DNA from: an uncultured Nitrososphaerota archaeon
Lineage (GTDB): Archaea > Korarchaeota > Korarchaeia > Korarchaeales > Korarchaeaceae
NCBI GenBank assembly: GCA_964480775.1
Contig: CAYZRF010000022.1
Location: 1 to 31,585, forward strand
Direction: 5' to 3'
Length of the DNA: 31,585 nucleotides
The position numbers and the translations under genes were made by a program. Below, piece after piece: positions 1,891-17,014 of this stretch (position 1 is its first letter; every line of letters starts with the position of its first letter). Under the pieces are notes generated by a model. It saw nothing but the letters and a program-made list of their open reading frames with translations, did not search any database and was not told where the DNA came from.

Positions 1891-3165
1891 TCATGAGTCA
1901 GATGAGCTCCTTATTTCCTCCAAAATCTCTTTTGCTCTATCTAATCTTATCTTTTTCTCTCTTATCAGCCTCTCAACTATCAGATCTACCTCTTCTGGCT
2001 TAGCGCCAGCAGCCATAGCCACGCTTCTTGCGTGAAGTTTCATGTGCCCAGCCTGTATTCCTTCAGTCGCAAGCGCCCTGATAGCTGCAAAGTTCTGAGC
2101 GAGACCCAAGGACACCATTACCTGGGCGAGTTCGCTTGCAGATCTCACTCCAAGAATCTTAAGACATATTTTCGCTATTGGGTGGACACGGGTTATGCCT
2201 CCCACAGTACCCACAGCCATGGGCATTTCTAGGTAGCCTTCAAGGTCTCCGTTCTCGTTCTTCCACCATCTACTCAAAGAGGTATACCTACCTGCGCGGG
2301 CAGCATATGCGTGTGCGCCAGCTTCAAGAGCCCTCGTGTCTTGTCCCGTTGCCCTAGCCAGAGCAATAACGCCGTTCATTATGCCTTTGTTGTGTGTGCA
2401 TGCTCTATAAGGATCGTTTGCTGCAAAGGCATATGCTGCTACTATCCCGTCGACGACTTCCTCCCCACCAATAGCTTCTTTCTTGAATACAGCTCTTGCC
2501 CTTGCTATCCTTCTATCTGCCAGGTTTGATATTATTCTCAAGTATACTCTTCCTCCGGTAAGCCTCTCTATAGTTGGGGCAACGGCTTCAGCCATTGTAT
2601 TCACTGCATTTGCTCCCATCGCATCTCTAACATCCACAAGAAGATGTGTTATTACCATTGGACCAACTTCTGTATCTAAAATCCTTACTTCGAGATCCCT
2701 TGTCCCTCCACCAAATTTGACTAAAACAGGATCTTGCTCGTTTGCTATCTCCAGAATCTGATCTTTATTTTCTAGTATAATTCTTCTTGCCTCTTCCGGA
2801 TCCTTAACGCCTACAAGTTGAACCTGACCTATCATGATGGGTTCAGTTGTCTCCGCAATGAAACCCCCTCCTGGGAGGGCCATCTTAGCTGCATTGCTCG
2901 CGGCAGCAACTACAGATGGTTCTTCTATTGCCATGGGTATAAGGTAGTCTTTCCCATTGATCTTGAAGTTGACCGCAATCCCTAAAGGCAGAGGCCAGGT
3001 GCCAATCACATTTTCTATAATGCGGTCTGCAACCCCTAACTCCAGGCTTCCCGCTTTAAGGAGCAGCTCAGTTTCCTTATCTGTCAGATCAGCAAATTCT
3101 TTTACTATCCTAACCCTTTCCTCAATGGGTAACTTGTAAAATCCCGGAATTCTTGAGGTCTTCAT
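1891..3165 (-). CDS. hmgA: 3-hydroxy-3-methylglutaryl-CoA reductase (class I, archaeal)
   Basis: Motifs EEPSVVAAASN, DAMGANAVNT, GTVGG and HMKLHAR are typical of the class-I HMGR catalytic domain. I moved the start to ATG 3165 (MKTSRIPGFYKLP...). The 38 upstream codons of the track ORF overlap the 3' end of the epimerase gene, and a TATA-like box lies at 3191-3200. Confidence 0.9.
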   Translation of the reverse strand: MKTSRIPGFYKLPIEERVRIVKEFADLTDKETELLLKAGSLELGVADRIIENVIGTWPLPLGIAVNFKINGKDYLIPMAIEEPSVVAAASNAAKMALPGGGFIAETTEPIMIGQVQLVGVKDPEEARRIILENKDQILEIANEQDPVLVKFGGGTRDLEVRILDTEVGPMVITHLLVDVRDAMGANAVNTMAEAVAPTIERLTGGRVYLRIISNLADRRIARARAVFKKEAIGGEEVVDGIVAAYAFAANDPYRACTHNKGIMNGVIALARATGQDTRALEAGAHAYAARAGRYTSLSRWWKNENGDLEGYLEMPMAVGTVGGITRVHPIAKICLKILGVRSASELAQVMVSLGLAQNFAAIRALATEGIQAGHMKLHARSVAMAAGAKPEEVDLIVERLIREKKIRLDRAKEILEEIRSSSDS

Positions 3166-3190
3166 ATGGTTCTCGAAGGATTTCCAGTTG

Positions 3191-3200
3191 TATATTAAAA
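3191..3200 (-). promoter_or_regulatory. TATA-like box (TTTTAATATA on the minus strand) upstream of hmgA
   Basis: AT-rich box whose centre is about 30 nt upstream of ATG 3165. This fits archaeal TATA spacing for a leaderless or very short-leader mRNA. Confidence 0.35.
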
Positions 3201-3244
3201 GTTGGCAGAGAGTAATACGACGGTATTCAATGGAACGGTTGGGT

Positions 3245-4210
3245 CTAAGCTCCTCTCCTCCTTCCTTTAACATTAACAAACCAATAAAATGTCTCTTTCA
3301 ACCCATCTTCTATTCTAAAGGTTGGAGAGTAGCCCAAAATCTCTCTAGCTAAGCTAATATCAGCAACGCTGTGCATGACTTCTCCCTTCAATAGTGGGAT
3401 GTATTTGAAACCAGCTCTATGACCAACCATCTCGGAGATTTTTTCAGCTAACTCATTTATCGTTATAGCCTTACCAGTCCCAACGTTTAGAACCTTTCCT
3501 ATCGCTTCCTCCTTCAAAGAAGCTAGTAGGTTGGCCCGGGCGACATCCTTAACGAATACGAAGTCCCTGGTCTGCTTACCATCTCCTCTTATTGTTAGAG
3601 GCTGTCCCTGTAAGGCCTGTCTCATGAATATGGAGATCACCCCACTATAATTTCCGCCAGCCTGTCTGGGACCATATACATTGAAATACCTCAAGCAAAC
3701 TGTCTTGAGTCCATAACTTTCGTAAAAAGCCCTGCAGTAAGACTCTGCAGCCAGTTTCGAGGCAGCGTATGGAGAAAGGGGGTCAAGCTCACTTTTCTCA
3801 TTGATTGGAAGAGATGTAGGGTTGCCATAAACAGCACAAGAGGATGCGTAAACGAACCTCTCCACATTGGAGCTTAGTGCGGCCTCCAGCAAGTTTATCG
3901 TCCCGTTAACATTCACATCATTAGTGAGATCTGGTTTTTCTATAGATAAGGGAACCGAAACCACAGCAGCTTGATGAAAAATGAAATCTGCTTCCTTGAC
4001 GAACCTCTTAACGAGCTCCTTGTCCCTAATGTCTCCTTCGATAACTTTTAGCTTGGAGTCTTCGAGAAAGGCCTTCAAGTTATCTAGGCTACCAGTGAAG
4101 AAGTTGTCGATGACTACAACCTGCTCTACTTCCTTTTCACTCAATAAGAGTTCTACTACGTGGCTACCTATAAAGCCAGCCCCCCCAGAAACCAGAACTT
4201 TTCCAAACAT
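3245..4210 (-). CDS. NAD-dependent sugar-nucleotide epimerase/dehydratase (extended SDR; WbpP/GalE/PelX-like UDP-hexose or UDP-HexNAc 4-epimerase)
   Basis: With the start at ATG 4210 the N-terminus is MFGKVLVSGGAGFIGSH (Rossmann GxxGxxG). Also present: catalytic YAASK, SSCAVYG and LRYFNVYGPRQ. The gene begins 11 nt after the stop of the upstream membrane-protein gene, consistent with one operon. Confidence 0.85.
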   Translation of the reverse strand: MFGKVLVSGGAGFIGSHVVELLLSEKEVEQVVVIDNFFTGSLDNLKAFLEDSKLKVIEGDIRDKELVKRFVKEADFIFHQAAVVSVPLSIEKPDLTNDVNVNGTINLLEAALSSNVERFVYASSCAVYGNPTSLPINEKSELDPLSPYAASKLAAESYCRAFYESYGLKTVCLRYFNVYGPRQAGGNYSGVISIFMRQALQGQPLTIRGDGKQTRDFVFVKDVARANLLASLKEEAIGKVLNVGTGKAITINELAEKISEMVGHRAGFKYIPLLKGEVMHSVADISLAREILGYSPTFRIEDGLKETFYWFVNVKGRRRGA

Positions 4211-4221
4211 TAAGGCATCAC

Positions 4222-5766
4222 CTAAAAAGCCGTGTAATAATAATAAGCTATCCTTTTCAAGCTTCTGAGTATTTGAAGGGTAGAGATGGCTCCTGAAACT
4301 AAACATCCAAAAAGATAGCCTAAAGAGACGTAATATATTCCATAGCTATGAGAGAGCAGGAGGCTGAGGATCAGGTTTAGAATCAAGCCCAAGGATAGCG
4401 AATAGATCATGGGCTTTGGTCTATAGAGATAGAAGGATATGAGGGAGTTTATCAGCACAAGTGTAAGAAGAATATTTCCAATTCCAGCTGCTATCAAGAC
4501 TAGGATGGAGTTCTCAGGAATTTTCCAAAGTATTCTCCCTTCTATTGAGAGGAAATAGACCAAGAGTAAAATGAGAATGCCTACTACAGTTAGAGATAGA
4601 ACAACCTTTCTGTAAAAGGACACAAGAAGCTCACCATATTCGGAGCGATCCTTAATCTTAGCCTTACCTCCTTTCTCTATGAGCCTGTATAGCTTAACCA
4701 AGTAATAATGAATGAGTCCAAAAAGAGGAGGAAGTATCAAAAGAGCCAAGTTCTTTCCTGTCTCATAGTCTAAGTCCATTAGGAGAGGATTTCCAACTCT
4801 CGCCCAAACGATGAGCTGATCGACTGTAAGGAGGAGGAAGTAGAGGGTTGAGGCTATGAAGTATGGAATTCCTAGGAGGAGGGTTAGAGAGAGGCTCGGC
4901 AGCCTTACCACAGTCTCTTCGCTCACCGCCTTGAGGAGAGTTAGCCTCATGTATATGTAAACGAAGATATAAATCAGGCTTGCTAGAATTCCAAAGAAAA
5001 TCCCATACATGTGGGCCCTCACGAATTCTAAGGAACTTTCGTATAAGGCAACGTTAACTACGAAAAGAGATAGGATAAAAATTAAGAATAGAGAAATGTA
5101 CTTTTTTAGAGTATAGAGGGGAGCTGTTGCTAACCAGAGCACGGAGAGGGCTGCAAAATAGATCAGCCCTAAGGAAGTCAGATCTTGAGAGAAAGCCCAG
5201 GAGAGAAGGAAATAAAATAAGATACCAGATAAAAGGACAGCAGATGTTCCAATCAGATAGTAAAGGGTTAAAAACTTTAAAGCCACACCGTAAGCCAATT
5301 GGTAGAAGTAAAAGAGAACCTTTCTCATGAAAACTGATTGTATCCCCGAGGTGGTAAGGAGGCTAGCTATAAGAGAAAGACCTATAACAGTAGCGATCCT
5401 TATATCCGCAGTAACTATGGAATAGAGAGAGATCCCAGTTAAGGAAAAGGAGATGGTGGACAGCAGCCATGGTGAGCCTGAAAGCAAGCCCAAGAGAAAG
5501 AGGAGGGCTCCTTCCTTCATTCTCTCAATGAGAGATTTCTTTTCCTCACCCACAGCCTCTTCTCTAGATTTATAGTAATCTATTAGCTCTATAACTGCCT
5601 TGGACAGAGAGAAAACATCTTCAAACCCATAGCTCCTAGCTATCTCTTGGGTAACACCAAGGGACTCGAGTATAGCTGCAACCTGCATGTAATCCTTAAC
5701 GTCAGCTTCTATCTCCAAAACAGCCATGGCCAAACTGTCAAGTTCTGAGAATATTTCTACGGTCAT
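4222..5766 (-). CDS. polytopic membrane protein, PelG-like (putative polysaccharide export/synthase subunit) with an extra N-terminal soluble domain of about 85 aa
   Basis: 514 aa with about 12 or more hydrophobic helices after a soluble N-terminus. The segments SGSPWLLSTISFSL and VDQLIVWARVGNP resemble conserved PelG segments as I remember them. Its ATG overlaps the stop of the PelF-like gene (ATGA at 5763-5766). Confidence 0.55.
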   Translation of the reverse strand: MTVEIFSELDSLAMAVLEIEADVKDYMQVAAILESLGVTQEIARSYGFEDVFSLSKAVIELIDYYKSREEAVGEEKKSLIERMKEGALLFLLGLLSGSPWLLSTISFSLTGISLYSIVTADIRIATVIGLSLIASLLTTSGIQSVFMRKVLFYFYQLAYGVALKFLTLYYLIGTSAVLLSGILFYFLLSWAFSQDLTSLGLIYFAALSVLWLATAPLYTLKKYISLFLIFILSLFVVNVALYESSLEFVRAHMYGIFFGILASLIYIFVYIYMRLTLLKAVSEETVVRLPSLSLTLLLGIPYFIASTLYFLLLTVDQLIVWARVGNPLLMDLDYETGKNLALLILPPLFGLIHYYLVKLYRLIEKGGKAKIKDRSEYGELLVSFYRKVVLSLTVVGILILLLVYFLSIEGRILWKIPENSILVLIAAGIGNILLTLVLINSLISFYLYRPKPMIYSLSLGLILNLILSLLLSHSYGIYYVSLGYLFGCLVSGAISTLQILRSLKRIAYYYYTAF

Positions 5767-7220
5767 TTCGTTACCTCCTCAATCTTCTTTTCAGATAGTA
5801 GCTCTACATATGAGCGCAAGTAGTCCGCCAGAAATCTTTCTTCGGAGTATAACCTTAGAGCCTTCTCTCTTGCCTTCTTACCGAAATCATCTCTCATCTC
5901 ATCGTTGAGAAGGGCTTCTACGATAGCCTTACCAAGTTCTTTTGGCTGTCTAGGAGGAACGACTATGCCGCAGCCTTCTAGAGCTTCTCTAACCCCTCCC
6001 ACGTCAGTAGCTACGACGAGGCGACCGCAGGCCATCGCTTCAACCACAGCGTAAGGAAATCCCTCAGATATACTCGGCAGGGCAACCACATCAGCTCTAT
6101 TGTATTCAATCTCTGGCTGGTTGGTCGGGCCCATAAAGAGAAATGAGTTTTCCAAACCCAGCTCTTTCACCTTTCTGACACAGGCTGCGTAGTATTTCTT
6201 GTCGACTATTGGACCAAAGACTTGGCACACAGCATTCTTAACCTCCTCTCTCACGTGGCTGAAGGCTTCGACCATGTCGATTATCCCTTTGAGCTTGTCA
6301 ACCCTTGCCATGAGGACTATTCTCTTCATATCCCTCTCTTTCTGGATAAGAAGGGGTCTGAACCTGTCTACATCTATTCCGTTGTATATCACTTCTATTT
6401 TTTCTTGCTTAATACCGAACTCCCTCTCCCAGTTTACGTTAAAGCCGCAGACAGGGGAAATTTTGTCAGCATAGCTGTAGTTCGTCAACACTATTGCTCG
6501 AAAGAGATTTAGCCAAAAGATCTTAGCTGGAAAGCTCTCAACTAATCTTACAGTGTCGAGTACCCTCTCCCTAAAGTAGAGACCGTGTTCCGTCAAGAGG
6601 TAAGGGACATCTTCTTCGACCTTAGAGATAACTGCAGGGATCCCACACAGAGCAGCTGCCGAGGAGTGGTACACATCGCCTTCTGGAAACGGGAATATGA
6701 GTACCCTCAAGAAGTGCTGAAGAACCCTTGCAAGGTCTATTAGCTCAGATATCGTCATGTTGGAGTAGAGTTCATCCTCTCCAAGCTTTGATAGGTATGT
6801 TTTCCACAGAGCTTCGCTCTTAAAGGTCTTTTTGTAGTCGTGATCAGCGAAGAAATTTCGCATGTACCTAAGGGCTTCACCCATCCTTCTAGGATTCTTT
6901 CCACCTAGAAGAACCTCTTCAAGGAAATCCTTGAAGTTAGGGATGAACTCCTCTTCCACCTCGCTTGTTCCTGTTCTAATCATCTTTTTCAGAATTGAGA
7001 TGCATGATGGATTGAAGTGCTCACTAGGCTGTTCCTCTCCCCACAGAGAAATAGTTACTAGTCCCTTCACATTCTTAGGTAAATGATAAGAAATCCTAAA
7101 AAAGGGGCTAGGAACTATTGAGACAAGATAAAATTCTATATCTGGAAGCTTTGTGATCAAATTGTGCGTCCAAGTGCTCACCCCGCCCCTAAAATATGGA
7201 TATGTGCCCTCGGTAGTCAT
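5763..7220 (-). CDS. pelF: PelF-like glycosyltransferase (DUF3492-type N-terminal domain + GT4/GT-B catalytic domain)
   Basis: The N-terminus EGTYPYFRGGVSTWTHNLI matches the PelF/DUF3492 signature (EGxYPYxxGGVSxW). The C-terminal half has the GT4 motif LPSISEGFPYAVVEAMACG...TDVGGVRE. Confidence 0.8.
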   Translation of the reverse strand: MTTEGTYPYFRGGVSTWTHNLITKLPDIEFYLVSIVPSPFFRISYHLPKNVKGLVTISLWGEEQPSEHFNPSCISILKKMIRTGTSEVEEEFIPNFKDFLEEVLLGGKNPRRMGEALRYMRNFFADHDYKKTFKSEALWKTYLSKLGEDELYSNMTISELIDLARVLQHFLRVLIFPFPEGDVYHSSAAALCGIPAVISKVEEDVPYLLTEHGLYFRERVLDTVRLVESFPAKIFWLNLFRAIVLTNYSYADKISPVCGFNVNWEREFGIKQEKIEVIYNGIDVDRFRPLLIQKERDMKRIVLMARVDKLKGIIDMVEAFSHVREEVKNAVCQVFGPIVDKKYYAACVRKVKELGLENSFLFMGPTNQPEIEYNRADVVALPSISEGFPYAVVEAMACGRLVVATDVGGVREALEGCGIVVPPRQPKELGKAIVEALLNDEMRDDFGKKAREKALRLYSEERFLADYLRSYVELLSEKKIEEVTK

Positions 7221-7253: not shown

Positions 7254-7706
7254 TCACTTCTCTTCTTTCTCCCCTTTTTCTTTTTTCTTATAAGGTCTAA
7301 ACAACGGTACTCCTGCTCCAAGATCATTAGATGGTTCTAATTTATCTTCCATCGAATTTGCCGTTTCTAAGGCCTTTTCAGCCTTCTCAAACTTATTCGC
7401 CCACATGTAGCACTTTGATGCCATTTTATACCCCCAAATTGAAGATCTCGGAGATATAGAAGCTGTAGAATCAGCATATTCCACGTAGGAGTCTCCAGCT
7501 AAATCGAACAATGTTATGGCCGCTTTTTTGTCTCCTGTCTTCAACGCACACTTTGCAGCCGATAAAAGGGAGAGAGCAGCCATTGCAATGTTCTTCTTTT
7601 CTTTCTGGATTTCAGCTTCCTTGAGATAATGCTCAAGAGCCTCCTGATATTTTTCCTCTTTTTCAAGTTTAGTCCCCAAAGACCAGTGGCTTACCTCTGA
7701 CATCAT
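7254..7706 (-). CDS. TPR/SNAP-like helical-repeat protein with a Lys/Glu-rich C-terminal tail
   Basis: Repeated A/Y/L helix-pair pattern (YQEALEHYLKEAE, AALSLLSAAKCALKTGDKKAAITLFDLAGDSYVEYA, ASKCYMWANKFEKAEKALE) and a tail of KKKEKGEKEEK. GGAGGAG lies about 8 nt upstream. This is the first gene of the minus-strand operon. Confidence 0.5.
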   Translation of the reverse strand: MMSEVSHWSLGTKLEKEEKYQEALEHYLKEAEIQKEKKNIAMAALSLLSAAKCALKTGDKKAAITLFDLAGDSYVEYADSTASISPRSSIWGYKMASKCYMWANKFEKAEKALETANSMEDKLEPSNDLGAGVPLFRPYKKKEKGEKEEK

Positions 7707-7794: not shown

Positions 7795-8520
7795 ATGGTC
7801 CAAAAAGGTCATGTTATTGAAAGAGTCAGGACTGGAATAGAAGGTTTCGACGAGCTAATAGAAGGAGGTTTACCCCAAGGAAGGATCTATCTAGTAGCAG
7901 GCGAGACAGGAACATGCAAGACCACTTTTGCCCTTCAATTTCTCTACATGGGAGCTCGTTACTTCGGTGAGAGCGGTATCTTTGTCACCATAGACGAGAA
8001 GCCCGAAAGGATAATAGAGGATGCCGCTTCGATAGGCTGGGACCTAGAGGAGCTTATTGATAAGAACAAACTTCTTATCCTTGAGATATCCCCTTTCTTC
8101 TCAGATATAAAGGAAATAAGTGCCAAACGAATAGCTGAGGAACTAAAGCTTCACATCAACCAGTTAAACGCAAAGAGGCTTGCAATAGATCCAATAGCTC
8201 CTCTTGTCTTAAAAGAGGATGAGGGCGGAGTTACGACTCAGAACATCATAAGGATGTACCTTAAGGAACTCTTCGACTCCTTGGAGGAACTAAAGATTAC
8301 AACCGTTGCCACTTCGGAGATCCCAACCGGAACAAATATGCTGAGCAGGTACGGGGTCGAGGAGTTCTTGGCATCAGGGGTTATTGTACTTCGCTTGATA
8401 AGAGAGGGCACAACATTCTCTAGGGAGTTATATGTAAGGAAAATGAGAGGAGTTAACCACAGCTTGAACGCATATCCTTTCGTGATACAGCGTGGGAGAG
8501 GAATAGTTATATCTATTTGA
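7795..8520 (+). CDS. single-domain KaiC/RecA-superfamily ATPase (KaiC-like, signalling type)
   Basis: RVRTGIEGFDELIEGGLPQGRIYLVAGETGTCKTTFALQF (Walker A with Cys in place of the usual Gly before Lys), VTIDE (catalytic Glu), RLAIDPI (Walker B) and YVRKMRGVNH. About 240 aa, typical of archaeal KaiC-like paralogs. Confidence 0.85.
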   Translation: MVQKGHVIERVRTGIEGFDELIEGGLPQGRIYLVAGETGTCKTTFALQFLYMGARYFGESGIFVTIDEKPERIIEDAASIGWDLEELIDKNKLLILEISPFFSDIKEISAKRIAEELKLHINQLNAKRLAIDPIAPLVLKEDEGGVTTQNIIRMYLKELFDSLEELKITTVATSEIPTGTNMLSRYGVEEFLASGVIVLRLIREGTTFSRELYVRKMRGVNHSLNAYPFVIQRGRGIVISI

Positions 8521-8535
8521 AGGATCTTATCATAG

Positions 8536-9708
8536 ATGAAACGACCGACAGGAATTCCTGTGCTAGATGACATGTTGAGAGGAGGACTTGAAGATGGTTC
8601 TACCACTATTCTCTATCATTCTCCTTTCATAAACGGAGCCTTATTTGCCTATCACATCTGTCACCACAGACTAAAGGTAGGAGATCCTGTCGTCTACTTC
8701 ACCAACACAAAGAGGATACTGGCTATCATAGAGGATGCAGAGAGATTTAGTTGGGATATGAGGAATTATCGCGAGAGGGGGAAGCTTTCCTTCATAGATG
8801 CTTATACTCCTTTTATGGGTCTCTCTGGGGAAGGAAGATATGCTGTTTCAGATCCAACTAGTCCTGAAGAGATAACTGCAGTATTAGCTAAGGCCCTAGA
8901 AGAGCAGGAGAGCGGGTCCCTCCTGGTAATAGACTCCCTATCGACCGCCTTAGATCAATGTGGCTTAAAAATACTTGATAAGCTCGAGGATTGGAGAAGG
9001 CTTGTTACTCTTTATGACGCTTCCCTTCTTTGCATCTTCGCTGATTGGGGATACGAAGCCGAGGTCAGGAGAAGAATTGAGGAATTTTTTGAGAACATGA
9101 TAGAGCTAACTTCGATAGAAAGGAACGTCATAATCGGAGACATTTTCACCGTTAGAAAAGTCGACGGCCAAGTAGTAAGAAGCAAAAGGGTCCCCTTCAA
9201 ACTGATAAAACCAGGAGGGGTGCGCATTTACATTCCAAAGATCCTCGTTACAGGACCTTTTCATGCTGGGAAAACTTCTGTCGTTCACGCTTTATCTACA
9301 AGGGCCGTAAGCGTGGATAGGGAATCAACAACCGTTGCTCTAGACTTTGGACATGTGGAATTTGAGGGATTTTTCGCTGATCTTTTTGGCACCACCGGGC
9401 AGCAACGGTTCGATCCAATACTTGAGCAACTTGGAGGTGAAGCTATTGCCGTGATCCTTGTTGTGGACAGTACCATGCCAGAGACCTTCCCTAGAGCCGT
9501 AGAGATGCTTAAGAAGGCTAGAGCATATGGTCTTCCTTGTATAGTGTTTGCTAACAAACAAGATTTGCCTAATGCTCTAAGCCCTGAAGAGGTCCGAGCG
9601 AAACTAGGATTGGGGGAGGATGTACCTGTTGTAGGAACTGTTGCTACCCAAAAGGAGGGGGTCAGGGAGGGACTAAGAATTCTGTTAGATACGATTTTTA
9701 GAGGGTGA
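8536..9708 (+). CDS. fusion protein: Walker-A-degenerate KaiC-like domain (aa 1-233) + MglA/CvnD-type small GTPase domain (aa ~234-390)
   Basis: The N-terminal part has the KaiC-like scaffold (IPVLDDMLRGGLEDGSTTILY, LLVIDSLSTAL), but HSPFINGA replaces the P-loop. The C-terminal part has G1 GPFHAGKT (9253-9276), G2 TTVALDFG, G3 LFGTTGQQRF, G4 NKQD and a G5-like TVATQ. It starts 15 nt after the preceding gene. Confidence 0.85.
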   Translation: MKRPTGIPVLDDMLRGGLEDGSTTILYHSPFINGALFAYHICHHRLKVGDPVVYFTNTKRILAIIEDAERFSWDMRNYRERGKLSFIDAYTPFMGLSGEGRYAVSDPTSPEEITAVLAKALEEQESGSLLVIDSLSTALDQCGLKILDKLEDWRRLVTLYDASLLCIFADWGYEAEVRRRIEEFFENMIELTSIERNVIIGDIFTVRKVDGQVVRSKRVPFKLIKPGGVRIYIPKILVTGPFHAGKTSVVHALSTRAVSVDRESTTVALDFGHVEFEGFFADLFGTTGQQRFDPILEQLGGEAIAVILVVDSTMPETFPRAVEMLKKARAYGLPCIVFANKQDLPNALSPEEVRAKLGLGEDVPVVGTVATQKEGVREGLRILLDTIFRG

Positions 9709-9712
9709 TCTT

Positions 9713-10093
9713 GTGGAAGAAAAAATAACCCTTAGGGATATGTTAAAAAAGGTTCTTTTGGACCTGAACTCTACTGGAGAGGTTTATGCATCTGCTATTG
9801 TGTCGAGAAATGGGCTTCTTATGGCTTGTGAAATGCCTAGTGATGTAGACTCGAGAACATTTGCAGCCATGACTGCTACGATGGTTGGAGCGGCAGAAAC
9901 TGCTTTCTCGGAACTAAAGAAAGGAGTGGCAGAGAGAGTTATAGTAGAGGGGCAAGAGGCCAAGATCATAGCAATGGGGGCTGGAAAAAAGGCTCTCTTA
10001 GTCACTATGTCTGATCCTAGAGCAAATCTTGGATTAATACTCCTTGAAATGGAGAAGGCTAGCGAAAAAATAAAGAAACTCTTGGGAAGGTGA
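9713..10093 (+). CDS. Roadblock/LC7 (MglB-like) domain protein
   Basis: 126 aa with the Robl/LC7 pattern (VYASAIVSRNGLLMACEMPSDVDSRTFAAMTATMVGAAE...ALLVTMSDPRANLGLI). The GTG start lies 4 nt after the GTPase-fusion stop. Confidence 0.85.
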   Translation: MEEKITLRDMLKKVLLDLNSTGEVYASAIVSRNGLLMACEMPSDVDSRTFAAMTATMVGAAETAFSELKKGVAERVIVEGQEAKIIAMGAGKKALLVTMSDPRANLGLILLEMEKASEKIKKLLGR

Positions 10094-10158: not shown

Positions 10159-10171
10159 CGAGCTTTTGTTT

Positions 10172-10423
10172 ATGCTAAAAGTATCAATTAACGAGAAAAG
10201 GTTTAGAGCAGCAACAAGTTACATATTTCTTAGCTATGGGCCGTTTAGAACCGCTTTTATTCTATTAGTACTAAACGGGATGGTTTCTTTCTTTTCTAAA
10301 CTTCTCATCTCTTTTGGAATGGAAGAACACAGTTTGTTGGGAATTGTGGTGTGTTATGCGCTTCTCGTGTTAAGTTTGATGCTTATGCTCACGGTACTTT
10401 TTGGGAGAACCAGAAAGGAATAG
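10172..10423 (+). CDS. possible small membrane protein (2 TM)
   Basis: ATG at 10172 (the track uses TTG at 10166). Two hydrophobic stretches (FRTAFILLVLNGMVSFF, LLGIVVCYALLVLSLMLMLTVLF). It lies directly after an oligo-T tract, has no obvious promoter and matches no family, so the call is weak. Confidence 0.3.
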   Translation: MLKVSINEKRFRAATSYIFLSYGPFRTAFILLVLNGMVSFFSKLLISFGMEEHSLLGIVVCYALLVLSLMLMLTVLFGRTRKE

Positions 10424-10445: not shown

Positions 10446-11153
10446 CTAGTCGATCTTATATCTAAACCAGTTAGTAGTAAGAGAACTTCCTCTCCTCGCT
10501 AGATATCTAACGTAATCTTCTCCACCCTCCTTTTTCATCTCAAGCACTCCATCAACCAATGTCATTAGGATGTGCTCTACCTCCTGTGGGTGAGTCTCCT
10601 TATCAAATAGGAAAAGACCGTTGCTTTGACTTGCTCGCAATCTTCCAAAAAGAGCGTGTAGAAACCTAGAGACTGTTTCAGGTTTGTTGTAAGTGAATAA
10701 GCTCGTTAACGTATCGAATACAAACCTAACTGGCCTATGTCTCATCCAAAACTCCTTTAGAAGGTCCCTCACTATGACGTTATATCCGGATAGATCCATT
10801 ATGCTAGAAGCCCTTTTGATGTACGGGATCTCCTCTGTCTCCAGACCAACTGTTTTGGAATACATGTCAATGAATACAATCCGCTCTTCCTTTTTCGCTT
10901 CCTCTATCCTCATGTTAAGTTCAGAAAACTCTCTTTCCTGCTCCTCCGCCGTTCTATCAGTTGTGGTGAATATACAAGCATCACCTTCAAGTATTCCAAC
11001 GTGTGTAAACTTTTTAGAGAAAATCTCCTTGCTAGAGATTGGAGGACCCAAGAGTAGAACGTTAATTCCTCTTGGCAGGCCCCCTCCTATCGCCTCATCA
11101 AGAACAGGAAATCCTATTGGCACCTTACTGTTCTGCCTTAATTCTTCTACCAC
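10446..11153 (-). CDS. KaiC-like domain protein with a degenerate Walker A (probable pseudo-ATPase)
   Basis: PIGFPVLDEAIGGGLPRGINVLLLGPPISSKEIF has the KaiC-like N-terminal signature, but GPPISSKE (11025-11048) replaces GxxGxGKT. FVFDTLTSL is Walker-B-like. GTG start. Confidence 0.75.
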   Translation of the reverse strand: MVEELRQNSKVPIGFPVLDEAIGGGLPRGINVLLLGPPISSKEIFSKKFTHVGILEGDACIFTTTDRTAEEQEREFSELNMRIEEAKKEERIVFIDMYSKTVGLETEEIPYIKRASSIMDLSGYNVIVRDLLKEFWMRHRPVRFVFDTLTSLFTYNKPETVSRFLHALFGRLRASQSNGLFLFDKETHPQEVEHILMTLVDGVLEMKKEGGEDYVRYLARRGSSLTTNWFRYKID

Positions 11154-11247: not shown

Positions 11248-12696
11248 GTGTATTGTTTGAAGCCAAAAATCGTACTTATCGAGGAAGGAGGCTTCCCTGT
11301 TGACATCGGAGGGATCTCCACATGGGTTAGAGAGCTAATTGAAGGGTTAAAGGAATTTGAATTCACCATATTGACTATAACAACTCATGAGAAATCTGAT
11401 CTCATATTGCAAGTTCCTGAAGGAATTAAAGTAAGGATTCACATTTTGTTTAGCAGAAGATGGAAACATAAAGCCCATCCCGATACCTTTAAGGGTGTAA
11501 TAGACTGCCTTAAATTGTTCCTTTCTGGAGAGAGAGTGGGGATAGAAGAAATCGTTGAGTTAATGGCCAACTTGGATCCAATAAAGGTATTATGCTCTAG
11601 AGAATTCTGGGAAATGGCTAAAGAAGCTTACGAGGAGCTAAATCTCTACCAAGAGAGTTTTATAGGCTTCGCATACGAACTTGCATGTATATTTCGTCCT
11701 CTACTTGAAGTTCTCTTGCTAGGAACCGACCTGAAGGGGTTTGACATAGTTCACTCCACCAATGCGGGACTGGCGGGGCTGGCAGGGGCAGCTGCAAAAG
11801 TTAAGTGGGGTTATCCGTTAGTTCTGACAGAGCATGGCTCTTTCCTAAGAGAATTTGACATATGGCTGGAAAGGACGAGGAGAAAAAGGTGGTCAAGGGA
11901 ATTGCTCAAAAGAGTTATGAACTCGGTAGTAAGAACCAGCCATTCTTATGCTAATTCCATAGTCTCAGTCTCGGAGTCCATAAGAAAAGATCAACTAAAG
12001 ATAGGTGCCTCGGAAGAAAAGCTTCTTGTGATAAGGAACGGAGTAGATGCTTCAAAATTTGAGAGAGCTATCACTAATATAGATGTCGGTGCCGACGTCA
12101 GTGTTATGAATAGGAAAATAGGAAAAGATTATGGAGAAGTTCTCAGAGTTGTTACAGTATCGAGAGTGGACAAAGTGAAAGGTATAGATTTACTGGCGAG
12201 GGCTGCGGCTTTTGCGCTAAGTTCTGGGGTGAGATTAGTCTTCGAGGTGGTCGGGCCTATAACCGATAAGGAGTATTTGGAGGAAATTCAAGCTCTGACC
12301 AAAAGCCTAGGAATATCAAGAAATTTCAAGATAATTGGGGTAAGAGACGTTAAGAACGTGTTGGACAGGGCTGACATTTTCGTCCTTCCCAGTAGGTCGG
12401 AAGGAAGTCCCTTTGCCCTTTTGGAGGCTATGGCAGCAAGCCTTCCGATTATTGGAACCGGTGTAGGAGGAATTCCTGAGGTGTTGGGAGATGCTGGGAT
12501 CCTTGTTAAACCCGAACCCAAGGAACTCGCTTCAGTCATAGAAAAACTCGCAAAAGACGCTGAACTCAGGAGAAAGCTTGGAAAAGCAGCTAGAGAGAGG
12601 GTGATATCCAATTTCCCACTTGAGAAGATGATTGATGGTTATAGGAACCTTTACTTAAAGCTCATGGAGGAAAAACCATGGTATTCTTCGGTTTAG
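11248..12696 (+). CDS. second PelF-like glycosyltransferase (DUF3492-type N-terminus + GT4 domain)
   Basis: N-terminus IEEGGFPVDIGGISTWVRELIEGL. GT4 motif LPSRSEGSPFALLEAMAASLPIIGTGVGGIPE. GTG start at 11248, with TTG at 11257 as an alternative. Confidence 0.8.
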   Translation: MYCLKPKIVLIEEGGFPVDIGGISTWVRELIEGLKEFEFTILTITTHEKSDLILQVPEGIKVRIHILFSRRWKHKAHPDTFKGVIDCLKLFLSGERVGIEEIVELMANLDPIKVLCSREFWEMAKEAYEELNLYQESFIGFAYELACIFRPLLEVLLLGTDLKGFDIVHSTNAGLAGLAGAAAKVKWGYPLVLTEHGSFLREFDIWLERTRRKRWSRELLKRVMNSVVRTSHSYANSIVSVSESIRKDQLKIGASEEKLLVIRNGVDASKFERAITNIDVGADVSVMNRKIGKDYGEVLRVVTVSRVDKVKGIDLLARAAAFALSSGVRLVFEVVGPITDKEYLEEIQALTKSLGISRNFKIIGVRDVKNVLDRADIFVLPSRSEGSPFALLEAMAASLPIIGTGVGGIPEVLGDAGILVKPEPKELASVIEKLAKDAELRRKLGKAARERVISNFPLEKMIDGYRNLYLKLMEEKPWYSSV

Positions 12697-13301
12697 GAAT
12701 AGGAGAGGTCTTCTCTATAAGGAGAAAGAGAGGGTGGAAAAGCGGGCTGTACTTGCTTTTCGCCATTCTTCACTTAACTTCTTTTTTCTTCTTAGGAAAG
12801 ACCATAGAGGTAACCTCCAAGATTATCTTATCTATTGCCCTCACCTTAACTGGAATTTTGCTTTCGTCTTTTATAATAATTAGAAAGAAGCTAACTCGCC
12901 TCATTAAAGCTGGACTTAAGGAAATTGATTCTGTTGAAAGGGAGTTTAGCAGGACCTTGGTTGCTCTTGACATAGTTTCCATCGTTGCGTCCTTTCTCGT
13001 AGTAATGGTTCTGTATGGGAGAAAACTTGAAGTTTTCCTGTCGTTGAATATTCTACTACTCGTTTCTTCATTAAGTCGCATGTCATTACTTGTCCTCATA
13101 GGTTCTAAATGGCTACCCGTTCTTCCAACGGCCTTAGCAATTGAGGTGCTCTTTGGAGCAATGTCGCATAGTTTCTGGTCAATCCTAAGCTACATGACAA
13201 CTTCTACATTGATTCTAACTCTATCCATCTGGAGAACCTCTTCGTTCTCGAGAGAACCTGCATATCTCATCTTTAGATCGATGGTGGAAGAGAATTTCTA
13301 A
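12678..13301 (+). CDS. hypothetical membrane protein (about 6 TM), translationally coupled to the second PelF-like gene
   Basis: ATG 12678 overlaps the upstream gene by 19 nt. There are multiple hydrophobic helices (LYLLFAILHLTSFFFL, IILSIALTLTGILLSSFIII, LDIVSIVASFLVVMVLY, LLVSSLSRMSLLVLIG, and others). No family recognised. Confidence 0.55.
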   Translation: MVFFGLGIGEVFSIRRKRGWKSGLYLLFAILHLTSFFFLGKTIEVTSKIILSIALTLTGILLSSFIIIRKKLTRLIKAGLKEIDSVEREFSRTLVALDIVSIVASFLVVMVLYGRKLEVFLSLNILLLVSSLSRMSLLVLIGSKWLPVLPTALAIEVLFGAMSHSFWSILSYMTTSTLILTLSIWRTSSFSREPAYLIFRSMVEENF

Positions 13302-13600: not shown

Positions 13601-14629
13601 TTATATTGGGATTTCCTTAGCCATTGTAAGCGCAAGAACTGCCATCTTAGCGTAAAGATTGTTCTCTGCTTGTTCATATATTACAGAGTTTGGTCCGTCC
13701 ATGACCTCGTCTGTAGCCTCTTCACCCCTAAAAACGGGTAAGACATGGGTAACAAAAGCTTGCTTTTCCATCAAATCTTCAACATGATGTTGCTCAAGCC
13801 TCCAGTTCTTGTATTTATTGTGTATCTCCAATTCCTTCTCCAGACCAAATGCGGAAGCTCCAATTTTTTGGAGTTCCCAAGTGACCCAGCTTCTCGGAAA
13901 TACGATGTTTGCTCCCTTCAGACCTTCCTCGAAATCGCTAACGATCTCGAATGATCCTCCAGCATCTTCAGCGTTCTTCTTTGCCATCTCAACTACCTTC
14001 GGATCTAAATCAAATCCTGGCGGATGTGCAACAGTTACATCCATGCCAAACCTAGACGCAATTAACACCTCTGATTGAATGCTGCATAGACCTCTTAGCT
14101 TGCTTGAATACGCCCAAGTTATGGTGTACTTTTTGCCTTGAATCTCTCCTAACTTCTCGATCACCGTCATTATGTCCCCTAGGGCTTGAGTTGGGTGATA
14201 CGTGTCGTCAGCCATGTTGATAACTGGAACTTTCGCTACCTCAGCAAACTGCCTCATGATCTTATGTCCCTCCCCATACTTGAAGTCTATAGCCTTATCG
14301 AGAACTCTTACACCAATTCCATCACCGTATAGATCGTACATCTTGGCCACATCCTTAACAGCTTCTCCTGCCTTTATTCTAGTGGTAGTCACGTCAATGT
14401 ATGAAGCGTGTCCTCCGAGCAACTCCATTCCTGCCTCAAATGCTCCTCTAGTTCTTGTTGATGGGGCGTAGAATAGCATGAAGAAGATCTTCCTATCAAG
14501 AATCCTCGGAGGTTTCTCTCCCCTTTGTATCATAGCCTTAAGCTTTTCAGCCAGCTTAATTACCTCAACAAGTTCGTCAAGAGTCCATTCCTGCGTAGTC
14601 AGGAGGTCTTTCCCATATAATTCACTCAT
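13601..14629 (-). CDS. carbamoyltransferase of the YgeW-like (non-canonical ATCase/OTCase) family
   Basis: STRTR (YAPSTRTRGAFE) and HPTQAL carbamoyl-phosphate motifs are present. ITWAYSSKLRG, RFGMDVTVAHPPGFDLDPKVVEMAKKNAEDAGGSFEIV and VFPRSW resemble YgeW rather than ArgF/ArcB (no SMG motif, and HVLP instead of HCLP). GGAGGG lies 7 nt upstream of the ATG. Confidence 0.75.
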   Translation of the reverse strand: MSELYGKDLLTTQEWTLDELVEVIKLAEKLKAMIQRGEKPPRILDRKIFFMLFYAPSTRTRGAFEAGMELLGGHASYIDVTTTRIKAGEAVKDVAKMYDLYGDGIGVRVLDKAIDFKYGEGHKIMRQFAEVAKVPVINMADDTYHPTQALGDIMTVIEKLGEIQGKKYTITWAYSSKLRGLCSIQSEVLIASRFGMDVTVAHPPGFDLDPKVVEMAKKNAEDAGGSFEIVSDFEEGLKGANIVFPRSWVTWELQKIGASAFGLEKELEIHNKYKNWRLEQHHVEDLMEKQAFVTHVLPVFRGEEATDEVMDGPNSVIYEQAENNLYAKMAVLALTMAKEIPI

Positions 14630-14698
14630 ACAAATCCCTCCACAATCGCATCATCTCTAGGAAAAGAGGCTTACTCTTAATATTATGTTAACACTCTC

Positions 14699-15952
14699 TT
14701 AGATCCCAAGATTCTTTAAATAGAGTTCTACGACCTCCATCTTTGGTTCAATTACTGGTGGAAGTCCCAGATGCTCAGCCACTACGTTAGGGTCCTTTAG
14801 CCCACTTCCAGTGATCTCCACGACTACGAGGTCCCCACTATCAATGAATCCTCCCTTTCGCAACTTTATCAAACCAGCTAACGACGCAACCCCCGAGGGC
14901 TCTGCAAATATCCCCTCTTCCTTAGCCAACAACTCTTGTGCTTCCAGTATCTCCTCGTTTGTCACGGATACCGCTGCTCCCTTGGATTCTCTTATGGCCC
15001 TCAGAGCCGCATCCCCATCCCAGGGAAATGGGTCTTCAAGTCCTGTAGCTATGGTCTCAGGCTTACCCCATGGCTCTATCTCAAATGGATCTTTTCCTTG
15101 CTCATAAGCCCTCACCAATGGGGCACATCCAGTTGACTGCACAGCAGCAATCTTTGGAAGGGATCTTATGAAGCCTAAAGTTTTGAACTCCTTGAAGCCC
15201 TTCCAATTGCCTGCAAGTAAGCCTCCTCCTCCAACAGGAATGAACAACCAGTCTGGATTCTCCCAATTTAGCTGTTCGCATATTTCATAAGCCGTAGTCT
15301 TATTTCCCTCGAACTGATAGGGGTTAAAGGTTCCAAAGCTAGGGCAGGGATACCACCCATACTTCTTGCTTGTTTCTAGCATCATTTTTACTGTTGGATC
15401 CTCTTCTTCCTCCCACCTTAGCCTTACAACTTTTGCCCCATACAGCATGAGTTGAGCAACTTTTCCGGCCCCAGCAAAATGCGGAACAAACGTGACGCAA
15501 TCTATGTTTGCCTTTGCACAAAAAGCTGCTAGAGCAGCTGCAGCATTTCCTGAAGATGCTATCACTGCGGTTTTTACACCAAATTCGATGCCCTTTGCTA
15601 CTCCAACGCTCATAGGCCTGTCCTTGAACGACCAAGTTGGATTTCTGGTCTCGTCCTTTGCATATAGATTTCTGAGGCCTATTGCACGCCCAAGATCTTC
15701 GCATTTAATCAAAGGAGTATTTCCCTCGCCCAAATCTACAACCTTAGTCCCTTCTTTTATTGGCAGAAGTTCTCTATACTTCCAAGTTCCTCCTTTCCTC
15801 CTGACAAGTTCGTCTTTAGTTAATACGCTTGAAATTGCATCGTAATCATAATAGATATCCAGCCTGCCGTCTATCTTGCTACAGTAGAAAACCTTCTCAT
15901 CGGGATCATGCTCTTCTCCACACCTAGCACATTTCAGCTTTTCAACGAACAT
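14699..15952 (-). CDS. threonine-synthase-family PLP enzyme (fold type II) with an N-terminal Cys-rich zinc-ribbon-like segment
   Basis: Same architecture as archaeal ThrC: CARCG...YC at the N-terminus, NPTWSFKDR (PLP lysine), SSGNAAAALAA and ITGSGLKD. IPVGGGGLLA replaces the usual ThrC GNxGN. Start set to ATG 15952 (MFVEKLKCARCG); the TTG at 15976 would sit inside the TATA-like region. Confidence 0.75.
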   Translation of the reverse strand: MFVEKLKCARCGEEHDPDEKVFYCSKIDGRLDIYYDYDAISSVLTKDELVRRKGGTWKYRELLPIKEGTKVVDLGEGNTPLIKCEDLGRAIGLRNLYAKDETRNPTWSFKDRPMSVGVAKGIEFGVKTAVIASSGNAAAALAAFCAKANIDCVTFVPHFAGAGKVAQLMLYGAKVVRLRWEEEEDPTVKMMLETSKKYGWYPCPSFGTFNPYQFEGNKTTAYEICEQLNWENPDWLFIPVGGGGLLAGNWKGFKEFKTLGFIRSLPKIAAVQSTGCAPLVRAYEQGKDPFEIEPWGKPETIATGLEDPFPWDGDAALRAIRESKGAAVSVTNEEILEAQELLAKEEGIFAEPSGVASLAGLIKLRKGGFIDSGDLVVVEITGSGLKDPNVVAEHLGLPPVIEPKMEVVELYLKNLGI

Positions 15953-15978
15953 CTCTCCTCTCACAATGATTGACAAAC

Positions 15979-15988
15979 TTTTAATTTA
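15979..15988. promoter_or_regulatory. TATA-like box (TTTTAATTTA) in the divergent region between the ThrC-like and carbamate kinase genes
   Basis: About 27 nt from ATG 15952 on the minus strand. About 70 nt from ATG 16058 on the plus strand, whose leader carries GGAGGG. Confidence 0.3.
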
Positions 15989-16057
15989 TGATTGAGATGC
16001 GACTCTGTTCTCAAGACCTTCGGGAGCAAACCGATGATTTCACAGGAGGGAAAACCT

Positions 16058-17014
16058 ATGAAAGGTAAAAGATTGCTAATAGCATTGGGAGGGAATGCGA
16101 TAAAGCAGGCCCATGAAAAGGGGACCTATGAGGAGCAGTTGAAGAACATCGATATAACGTGCAATCATATAGTGGAAATCATAAAGAGGGGTTACAGGGT
16201 TGCCGTAACTCATGGGAATGGTCCCCAGGTCGGAGCATTGTTAATTCAACAAGAGGAAGCTGCAAAACGTGTGCCACCTCAGCCAATGGATGTATGTGGT
16301 GCAATGACCCAAGGCCAAATAGGTTACATGCTACAGCAGACCCTACAGAACAAGCTCAAGAAAAGGGGGTTGAAAGTACCCGTTGCCACAGTTGTAACTC
16401 AAGTACTCGTGAACAAGGACGATCCTGACTTTCAGGATCCACACAAACCAGTAGGACCTTTCTACGATTATGAGACAGCCATGAGATACCAGAAGGAGAA
16501 AGGTTACTTCATCAGAAAGGTGAAGCCAAATGGTGAGAGACCTTACAGAAGGGTTGTCCCCTCTCCGGATCCCATTAAGACTATAGAAGCGGAGCCCATA
16601 AAGCTACTTTATGACAAAGGAGTGGTGGTAATAGCATCTGGCGGTGGAGGAATTCCTGTGATCGAGGAAGATGGGTCGCTGAAAGGCGTAGAGGCAGTAA
16701 TTGACAAAGATCTAGCAGGAGAAAGGATGGCAGAGGTTATAGGAGCGGAGATATTCATGATCCTAACGGATGTAGAGAAGGTAAAGTTGAATTACGACAA
16801 GCCAAATGAAAAGGATATTGATAGAATGACCGTGTCTGAGGCTAAGAAGTACCTTGAAGAAGGGCACTTTTTGCCAGGCAGCATGGGACCAAAAGTTAAA
16901 GCTTGCATAAGGTTCATAGAAGAAGCACATGGAGAGAAAGCAATAATTACATCATTAAACAAAGCTGTAGAGGCATTAGAAGGGAAAACAGGAACTGTAA
17001 TAGTTCCAGATTAA
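16058..17014 (+). CDS. arcC: carbamate kinase
   Basis: MKGKRLLIALGGNAI, VTHGNGPQVG, VVIASGGGGIPV, DKDLAGE and the length (about 318 aa) are typical of carbamate kinase. Start moved to ATG 16058, 9 nt downstream of GGAGGG; the track start at 15992 lies within the promoter region. Confidence 0.9.
   Translation: MKGKRLLIALGGNAIKQAHEKGTYEEQLKNIDITCNHIVEIIKRGYRVAVTHGNGPQVGALLIQQEEAAKRVPPQPMDVCGAMTQGQIGYMLQQTLQNKLKKRGLKVPVATVVTQVLVNKDDPDFQDPHKPVGPFYDYETAMRYQKEKGYFIRKVKPNGERPYRRVVPSPDPIKTIEAEPIKLLYDKGVVVIASGGGGIPVIEEDGSLKGVEAVIDKDLAGERMAEVIGAEIFMILTDVEKVKLNYDKPNEKDIDRMTVSEAKKYLEEGHFLPGSMGPKVKACIRFIEEAHGEKAIITSLNKAVEALEGKTGTVIVPD

Follow-up and report, generated by a model that had tools for sequence, protein, structure and literature searches.

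Nucleotides 8536..9708 on the plus strand of a 31,585-nucleotide stretch of DNA from an uncultured Nitrososphaerota archaeon (contig CAYZRF010000022.1 of assembly GCA_964480775.1, placed by GTDB in the Korarchaeaceae; hereafter the window) hold a gene in which an inactivated KaiC-like (iKaiC) domain runs directly into a small GTPase domain of the MglA type. Open reading frame (ORF) calling gives one frame of 390 amino acids (aa) without an internal stop, and Pfam assigns residues 4-233 of the product to KaiC (PF06745, E 2e-20, profile positions 2-228 of 231) and residues 235-386 to Arf (PF00025, E 1e-15, 57.8 bits against a cut-off of 22.3). Among the NCBIfam models, thermo_KaiC_1 and KaiC_arch_4 score far under their cut-offs on this protein, and small_GTP scores over its own. 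An earlier note, made from the letters of the sequence, had described a single polypeptide that joins a KaiC-like domain to a small GTPase in one frame with no stop at the junction, and ORF calling and Pfam both agree with it. In an AlphaFold2 monomer model built from a 44-sequence alignment (predicted local distance difference test score 88.2, predicted template modelling score, pTM, 0.73) the last KaiC strand runs into GTPase beta-1, and residues 228-239 form one continuous beta strand across the zero-linker junction GGVRIYIPKILVTG (9214..9255; this and all other features of the fusion gene lie on the plus strand). The junction, PGGxKxYIPKILVTGP, is also the most conserved segment of the family, with an all-pairs identity of 68%, as against 36% for the N-terminal domain and 62% for the GTPase.

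A join of this kind might be produced by an assembly chimera, or by a frameshift that merges two genes, and the earlier note had proposed examining positions 9200-9260 for a chimeric join and searching databases for the same architecture. In a korarchaeal relative with 89% protein identity the same ORF, of 390 aa, is present in each of three independent assemblies (ENA ERZ27227321, JGI 3300014887 and ENA ERZ584659), and the codon differences between the window and its relative L001 are predominantly synonymous throughout, at 114 synonymous to 32 non-synonymous in the N-terminal domain, 11 to 2 in the junction and 81 to 10 in the GTPase. A homology search returned 931 matches, and all 120 of those listed, which are 339-411 aa long, carry PF06745 together with PF00025; the residue-conservation counts given below refer to these 120 aligned members. 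Both domains were likewise found in one ORF without a linker in 80/80 of the metagenome loci kept and in 88/88 of the GTPase-bearing ORFs inspected. Because the architecture recurs in independent assemblies, in the 120 listed homologues and in 80 metagenome loci, we consider an artefact of either kind excluded; hundreds of fused homologues from several phyla, isolate genomes included, the codon-like substitution pattern across the join, and the exceptional conservation of the junction make it vanishingly improbable.

The window gene is an ordinary member of an uncharacterised fusion family, which is found widely among archaea and has many entries, generically named, in public databases. Source names among the 120 listed homologues include Korarchaeota, Bathyarchaeota, Methanosarcinales, ANME-2 (anaerobic methanotrophic archaea), Methanoperedens and Altiarchaeales, and isolate genomes contribute members from Methanofollis ethanolicus (WP_067052551.1) and Methanocalculus sp. 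MC3 (WP_460372654.1), for which the database offers only the name 'GTP-binding protein'. When 1.84 billion cluster representatives were searched with a profile, 177 clusters were recovered at E <= 1e-30, with near-full-length fusions (340-600 aa) making up 94 of the 150 best-scoring representatives listed, while a metagenome scan with an alignment query (A1) confirmed 588 relatives among 600 candidate stretches. The nearest species-representative genome is that of the Guaymas Basin 'Thermoproteota archaeon B8_G17', and a scan of such genomes with a single-sequence query yielded L007 as its one true relative, besides two KaiC matches that are unrelated. Our full-text literature searches found no description of a KaiC-GTPase fusion, and Makarova et al. 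2017 (mBio) might list the architecture. The individual parts, namely the MglA/MglB switch and inactivated KaiC adaptors, are known; their covalent union, and the conserved triad of genes considered below, was not found described in the literature searched.

The N-terminal part of the protein (residues 1-232; 8536..9231) has the RecA fold of KaiC-like proteins. Its near-full-length Pfam profile and its fold match bear out the KaiC landmarks that the earlier note had recognized: Foldseek superimposes the domain on PH0284 (2DR3) with a template modelling (TM) score of 0.86 and a root-mean-square deviation (rmsd) of 2.5 A, and also matches SSO2452, and phmmer against the PDB finds PH0284 at 2e-16 and PH0186 at 7e-14. 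Together PH0284, PH0186 (2ZTS) and SSO2452 (2W0M) are the closest solved folds (TM 0.84-0.86), and a segment of the form FGWD..Y.E.G...F.DA is common to the domain and PH0284; all three, however, retain GxxGxGKT, which the domain of the fusion lacks. We aligned it with the paralogue encoded upstream in the window, with PH0284 and PH0186, and with KaiC CI, the CI sequence serving for landmarks only. Where the upstream paralogue reads GETGTCKT and KaiC CI reads GTSGTGKT, the fusion has HSPFINGA, within a degenerate P-loop ILYHSPFINGAL (residues 25-36; 8608..8643). The loss of Walker A reported by the earlier note is thus upheld, although the segment lies one codon to the right of the 8605-8640 given there. 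No GK[ST] occurs in the KaiC-domain P-loop of any of the 120 members, and none has a Lys anywhere at positions 30-37. At the site of the catalytic Glu pair of KaiC the window protein has N57-T58 (8704..8709), and an acidic pair is found there in 0/120 members. The earlier note had allowed that a shifted but functional P-loop might exist; the sole GK of the domain (G82-K83-L84) is not a GK[ST] and is unconserved, and this candidate was rejected.

Since the P-loop Lys and Thr and the catalytic Glu pair are all missing, the domain is very probably catalytically dead and incapable of canonical ATP hydrolysis. Other parts of the fold are kept. The Walker B strand LLVIDSLST (8920..8946) retains its Asp (Asp133) in 99/120 members, and the remodelled P-loop is itself constrained, with Pro30 invariant and position 33 occupied by Asp or Glu in ~90% of members; further residues in the replacement and pocket region, D88, S134 and W171, are invariant or nearly so. 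Lys208 (9157..9159) stands opposite the Lys of the KxR segment (RKMRG) of PH0186 and KaiC in the alignment; it is present in 118/120 members and replaced by Arg in the remaining 2. In KaiC and DnaB the KxR motif lets a neighbouring subunit reach the gamma-phosphate (bioRxiv 10.1101/2022.06.23.497301). The conservation pattern indicates that the KaiC domain is under purifying selection despite its lost catalytic residues. It is not a circadian KaiC: the circ_KaiC model of NCBIfam scores 28 bits against a cut-off of 546, and the fusion has a single KaiC domain, not the tandem CI-CII architecture. Cyanobacterial KaiC does resemble it in having two tandem P-loop-fold domains with a KaiC domain first, and Foldseek aligns ~440 columns, but at an rmsd of about 12 A, so the domain arrangement differs; the second domain of the fusion is a TRAFAC-class GTPase and not of the RecA type, and the phosphorylation sites, KaiA and KaiB are lacking.

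The C-terminal domain (residues 233-390; 9232..9705) was delimited by Pfam, alignment and MglA family features, and contains each of the motifs that the earlier note had listed as an intact G1-G4 set. The G1 P-loop GPFHAGKT (9253..9276) follows GxxxxGK[ST] in 120/120 members; G2, TTVALDFG (9328..9351), comprises T265/T266 and Asp270, with both the TT and the Asp conserved in 120/120; G3, GTTGQQ (9388..9405), includes the catalytic Gln289 and conforms to G[TS]xGQ in 120/120; and G4, NKQD (9553..9564), which reads NKxD/N across the family, sits inside the Arf1-like stretch VFANKQDLPNAL. The set departs from the canonical one in G3, where Gly285 replaces the usual Asp; in the family, whose motif is GT[IPVT]GQ, Asp occupies this position in 0/120 members. 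In the MglA family this is normal and no defect. In MglA-type GTPases a relocated Asp makes up for the loss of the Walker B Asp, and Asp270, four residues past the G2 Thr, stands at what we take to be its position. By these motifs the domain is of the MglA type (groups 2-5) and not a true Arf, and it retains all the nucleotide-binding and catalytic elements of those groups. MglA groups 2-5 are defined by a G2 Thr in place of the group-1 Arg and by a GTPGQ G3 without the near-universal Asp, and are coupled to MglB (PMC4316618). The fusion shares with them the TT in G2, the GTxGQ without Asp in G3 and the compensating Asp, as well as the coupling of its gene to a Roadblock gene whose consensus has an Asp-Gly pair; it differs from them in that a dead KaiC domain of 232 residues is covalently attached to the G domain, in a protein of 390 aa, not a stand-alone one of 150-240 aa, and the window itself has GTTGQ, not GTPGQ, in G3 and Asn-Gly in its Roadblock protein.

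A database name such as 'ADP-ribosylation factor-like protein' implies an Arf-like GTPase of membrane trafficking or remodelling, and the top matches of the domain in Pfam and the PDB are indeed Arf and Arl proteins (E about 1e-12 for the best solved relatives by sequence). The run VFANKQDLPNAL..KLGL is also closely similar to Arf1, and this likeness speaks for the same function. We nevertheless regard it as highly improbable, given the absent G3 Asp (Gly285 stands at its position, and no WDVGGQ-type Arf G3 is present), the TT in G2, the coupling to MglB/Roadblock, and the internal position of the G domain, which starts at residue 233 right after the last KaiC strand and so bars an N-terminal amphipathic (myristoylated) helix. 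It may be added that CIVFANKQDLPNALSPEEVRAKLGL (9538-9600, +; residues 335-355) nearly matches the Arf1 G4 region despite the MglA-type catalytic core. That one G domain combines traits of MglA and of Arf is relevant to the archaeal origin proposed for the Arf/Sar GTPases.

Gene neighbourhoods were counted in 38 non-redundant loci, in each of which the fusion is flanked by 1.5 kb or more on either side. In the window, a Roadblock/LC7 (MglB-like) gene (9713..10093, +; PF03259, E 1e-14) begins 4 nucleotides after the stop codon of the fusion. This gene had no place in the earlier note's account, which also missed the MglA identity of the GTPase. A Roadblock gene adjoins the fusion in 37/38 loci, downstream in 29 and upstream in 8, and the Roadblock consensus holds the Asp-Gly pair (vsRdGLL), as published, with Asn-Gly in the window. 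KaiC-family paralogues are nearly as regular companions, with one lying within 1.5 kb of the fusion in 31/38 loci. They are of two types, assigned by single-sequence scores. The first is represented in the window by the upstream single-domain KaiC-like ATPase (7795..8520, +; PF06745, E 4e-67), which ends 15 nucleotides before the fusion; this upstream type adjoins the fusion in 8/38 loci, confined to the window's clade and Bathyarchaeota. The second, the DUF7504 type, is the third KaiC-family gene of the window (10446..11153, -), with a degenerate P-loop GPPISSKE, and is found near the fusion in 30/38 loci (21 without Walker A and 9 with GxxxxGK[ST]), which makes it the customary neighbour across phyla, often immediately upstream of it with overlapping stop and start codons. 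The earlier note had named the upstream P-loop KaiC as the partner of the dead domain, and the counts of 8/38 against 30/38 do not sustain that choice; its broader proposal, that the dead domain serves as a docking or oligomerisation platform, fits the KaiC linkage in 31/38 loci and the retention of Lys208. It had also called the upstream paralogue P-loop-bearing, which is right as to the Walker A Lys and Thr, but in its motif, GETGTCKT, the residue before the Lys is Cys and not the customary Gly. The 89%-identical relative is alike in this respect, and more distant orthologues read GE[AT]G[AT]GKT; the ATPase activity of the upstream KaiC may be altered by the Cys. Gene order varies among lineages: a Bathyarchaeota locus (L004) has a PAS sensor, iKaiC, KaiC, a 176-aa protein, the fusion and Roadblock; Methanoperedens has iKaiC, fusion and Roadblock; and Altiarchaeales has fusion, Roadblock and DUF2226.

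Natural variants of the arrangement exist. In one protein of 527 aa, the triple fusion P0138, iKaiC, GTPase and Roadblock follow one another in a single chain. Conversely, locus L090 (499-1227) has a stand-alone iKaiC of the subfamily, with an AIR-synthase-related gene upstream and DUF2226 downstream, a context that resembles that of the Altiarchaeales locus L006, yet GTPase and Roadblock are both absent. Stand-alone pairs of a Roadblock and an MglA-type GTPase gene lie downstream of a V4R gene in L091 (4626-5573) and L092 (2163-3110), both from the same Guaymas samples as the korarchaeal relative, and L091 has a ParA/MinD-like gene farther upstream of the pair. Finally, a sister subgroup of ~370 aa (P0231, P0234, P0252; L093 5001-6125) has an intact KaiC Walker A and acidic pair and a GTPase with degenerate G2 and G3; in L093 there is no adjoining Roadblock gene, and a KaiC-like gene follows.

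Taken together, we propose that the family represents a GTP switch of the MglA/MglB type that is joined, through a pseudo-ATPase KaiC adaptor, to partners of the KaiC family, and we give this reading a probability of roughly 0.5. The Roadblock protein, probably a dimer, would bind the GTPase domain and control GTP hydrolysis or the nucleotide state of the switch. Because of synteny, the triple fusion and the precedent of MglA/MglB, this partnership is the part that we predict with considerable confidence. On the other side of the junction, the dead KaiC domain would pair with KaiC-family partners encoded nearby, by way of KaiC-type subunit interfaces, a step suggested by synteny and by Lys208; the usual partner would be the DUF7504-type paralogue, with the upstream KaiC-like ATPase a further candidate in this lineage. 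Such a hetero-assembly is, in our estimation, an even bet. An ATP-dependent KaiC-like sensor or timer would thereby be coupled to a GTP switch, and the near-invariant Lys208 may reach the nucleotide site of the neighbour. More speculatively, the shared, linker-free beta strand could pass a conformational change of the KaiC assembly rigidly to the GTPase, or the reverse. In the window's clade only, the module might serve to control or position a Pel-like exopolysaccharide synthase (PelF/PelG), whose genes lie on either side of it.

Several observations weigh against this proposal. Seven of the 38 loci, e.g. the Altiarchaeales locus L006, have no nearby KaiC paralogue, and given these the adaptor may act alone or with partners encoded elsewhere. 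Since the DUF7504 type is mostly P-loop-less, many lineages may have no ATPase in the module at all. At the Arg position of KxR the family has mostly Asp, Glu or Gly, and Arg is outside the eight commonest residues, which together account for 112/120 members; with this Arg lost, the idea that the fusion would complete a neighbour's site rests on a single Lys. The association with Pel, moreover, is limited to one clade, and elsewhere the flanking genes are unrelated.

The dead domain could instead work within its own protein, packed against the attached GTPase as its regulator or effector (a guanine nucleotide dissociation inhibitor, a guanine nucleotide exchange factor or an effector surface) or as a module for homo-oligomerisation, with no mixed assemblies being formed. 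The rigid zero-linker junction and the monomer pTM of 0.73 are in keeping with this, as are the seven loci without an adjacent KaiC paralogue and the strongly conserved remodelled P-loop (P30, D/E33), which suggests a new binding surface. Against it stand the KaiC paralogue in 31/38 loci, often translationally coupled, and the stand-alone iKaiC of L090, which points to a role independent of any GTPase, and we think it unlikely. A domain that is not dead, but holds a nucleotide or a phosphorylated ligand in its remodelled pocket and, as a sensor, gates the GTPase, would account for the Walker B Asp in 99/120 members and for the near-invariant residues P30, D88, S134 and W171 in the pocket region; it is hard to reconcile with the want of a P-loop Lys in 120/120 members, the missing catalytic pair and the acidic D/E33, which would repel phosphate, and we consider it decidedly unlikely. 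The coupling of a GTP switch to KaiC-family partners through a pseudo-ATPase adaptor is the reading that we retain.

Known systems offer partial parallels to this coupling. The Streptomyces conservon CvnA-D comprises a sensor histidine kinase, a Roadblock protein, a DUF742 protein and an MglA-type GTPase. It is similar in that a nucleotide-dependent sensor is co-encoded with a Roadblock protein and with an MglA-type GTPase of groups 2-5 to make up one signalling unit, and the Bathyarchaeota locus L004 also begins with a PAS sensor; in the archaeal module, however, KaiC-family proteins replace the histidine kinase, DUF742 is lacking and the GTPase is fused to its adaptor. The Pfam scan found no histidine kinase and no DUF742 among the window proteins. 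Rag GTPases and Ragulator are comparable by analogy only, as a small GTPase with Roadblock-fold partners, and the triple fusion P0138 has the same order of G domain then Roadblock, but Rag has no KaiC domain. In the survey of MglA proteins by Wuichet and Sogaard-Andersen (2014), proteins >240 aa were excluded, which would explain why the fusion is missing from it, and archaeal group 4 was without conserved neighbours (PMC4316618). The concept of inactivated KaiC ('iKaiC') domains and of KaiC-like hubs in archaeal signalling is that of Makarova, Galperin and Koonin (2017), as PMC5847659 cites it. The fusion conforms to it, as a KaiC fold with a disrupted ATPase that is fused to a signalling domain and co-encoded with KaiC paralogues, whereas the fusions that PMC5847659 describes are to REC, HalOD1 and PAS domains.

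If the proposal holds, the fusion family provides a physical link between KaiC-like proteins and MglA-type GTPases in archaea. How archaea transduce signals is not well understood; a role as hubs in this process has been proposed for KaiC-like proteins, and we know of no partners of archaeal MglA-type GTPases beyond MglB. What emerges is a concrete module of three or four proteins, consisting of a KaiC-like partner, the dead-KaiC-MglA fusion and MglB. Its conservation extends at the least to Korarchaeota, Bathyarchaeota, Methanomicrobiales, Methanosarcinales/ANME-2, Methanoperedens and Altiarchaeales, and it opens a route to testing how ATP-driven KaiC-type proteins communicate with GTP switches.

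In the window the module is surrounded by a Pel-like polysaccharide locus. On the minus strand lie an epimerase (3245-4306), a PelG-like protein (4222-5766; PF16933, 36.7 bits), a PelF glycosyltransferase with a DUF3492 N-terminal domain (5763-7220; NF038011, 153.6 bits against a cut-off of 100) and a tetratricopeptide repeat (TPR) protein (7254-7706), which is divergent from the KaiC operon and forms the first gene of the TPR-PelF-PelG block. Beyond the module, on the plus strand, are a second PelF-type glycosyltransferase, also with a DUF3492 N-terminal domain (11248..12696; NF038011, 167.2 bits against the same cut-off), and an unannotated 207-aa protein (12678-13301) of the same locus. The Pfam label 'GT4-conflict' on the glycosyltransferases was set aside as generic similarity to glycosyltransferase family 4, the PelF equivalog and DUF3492 matches being far stronger. 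The PelG-PelF-TPR block adjoins the KaiC-fusion-Roadblock genes in relatives whose fusion is 44-56% identical (L010, L011, L013, L015, L017, L020 and L026), and the TPR protein, syntenic with the KaiC operon in this clade, may be an adaptor; it also has a weak Pfam match to SNAP (soluble NSF attachment protein) at E 1.7e-6. A Pel-like synthase as the output of the module in this clade is possible but doubtful. PelD is the bacterial cyclic di-GMP (c-di-GMP) receptor of the Pel synthase, and a PelD model gave no match among the window proteins scanned. In its most specific form, the proposal for Korarchaeia and related TACK (the Thaumarchaeota, Aigarchaeota and Crenarchaeota together with the Korarchaeota) lineages would be that a mixed KaiC-family assembly with a tethered MglA-type GTPase and MglB regulates the PelF/PelG synthase in place of PelD, which we hold to be quite unlikely. 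If true, a KaiC-GTPase assembly would do the job of PelD, e.g. by switching on or positioning the synthase, and this would suggest a way in which, in this clade, a Pel-type polysaccharide machinery might be controlled by archaea that have no c-di-GMP signalling.

The remaining features of the window are of minor weight. Between the Roadblock and the DUF7504-type genes is a small hydrophobic ORF of 85 aa (10166..10423, +; 116 aa in L001), which is kept only in close korarchaeal relatives. PADLOC defence models gave only P-loop-level matches on the window (E >= 9e-4), and membership in a defence system was dismissed as noise of this kind. Housekeeping genes flank the locus on either side, at 1891-3279 (-) and 13601-17014, and encode 3-hydroxy-3-methylglutaryl-CoA (HMG-CoA) reductase, ornithine/aspartate carbamoyltransferase, a pyridoxal phosphate (PLP)-dependent enzyme and an amino-acid kinase.

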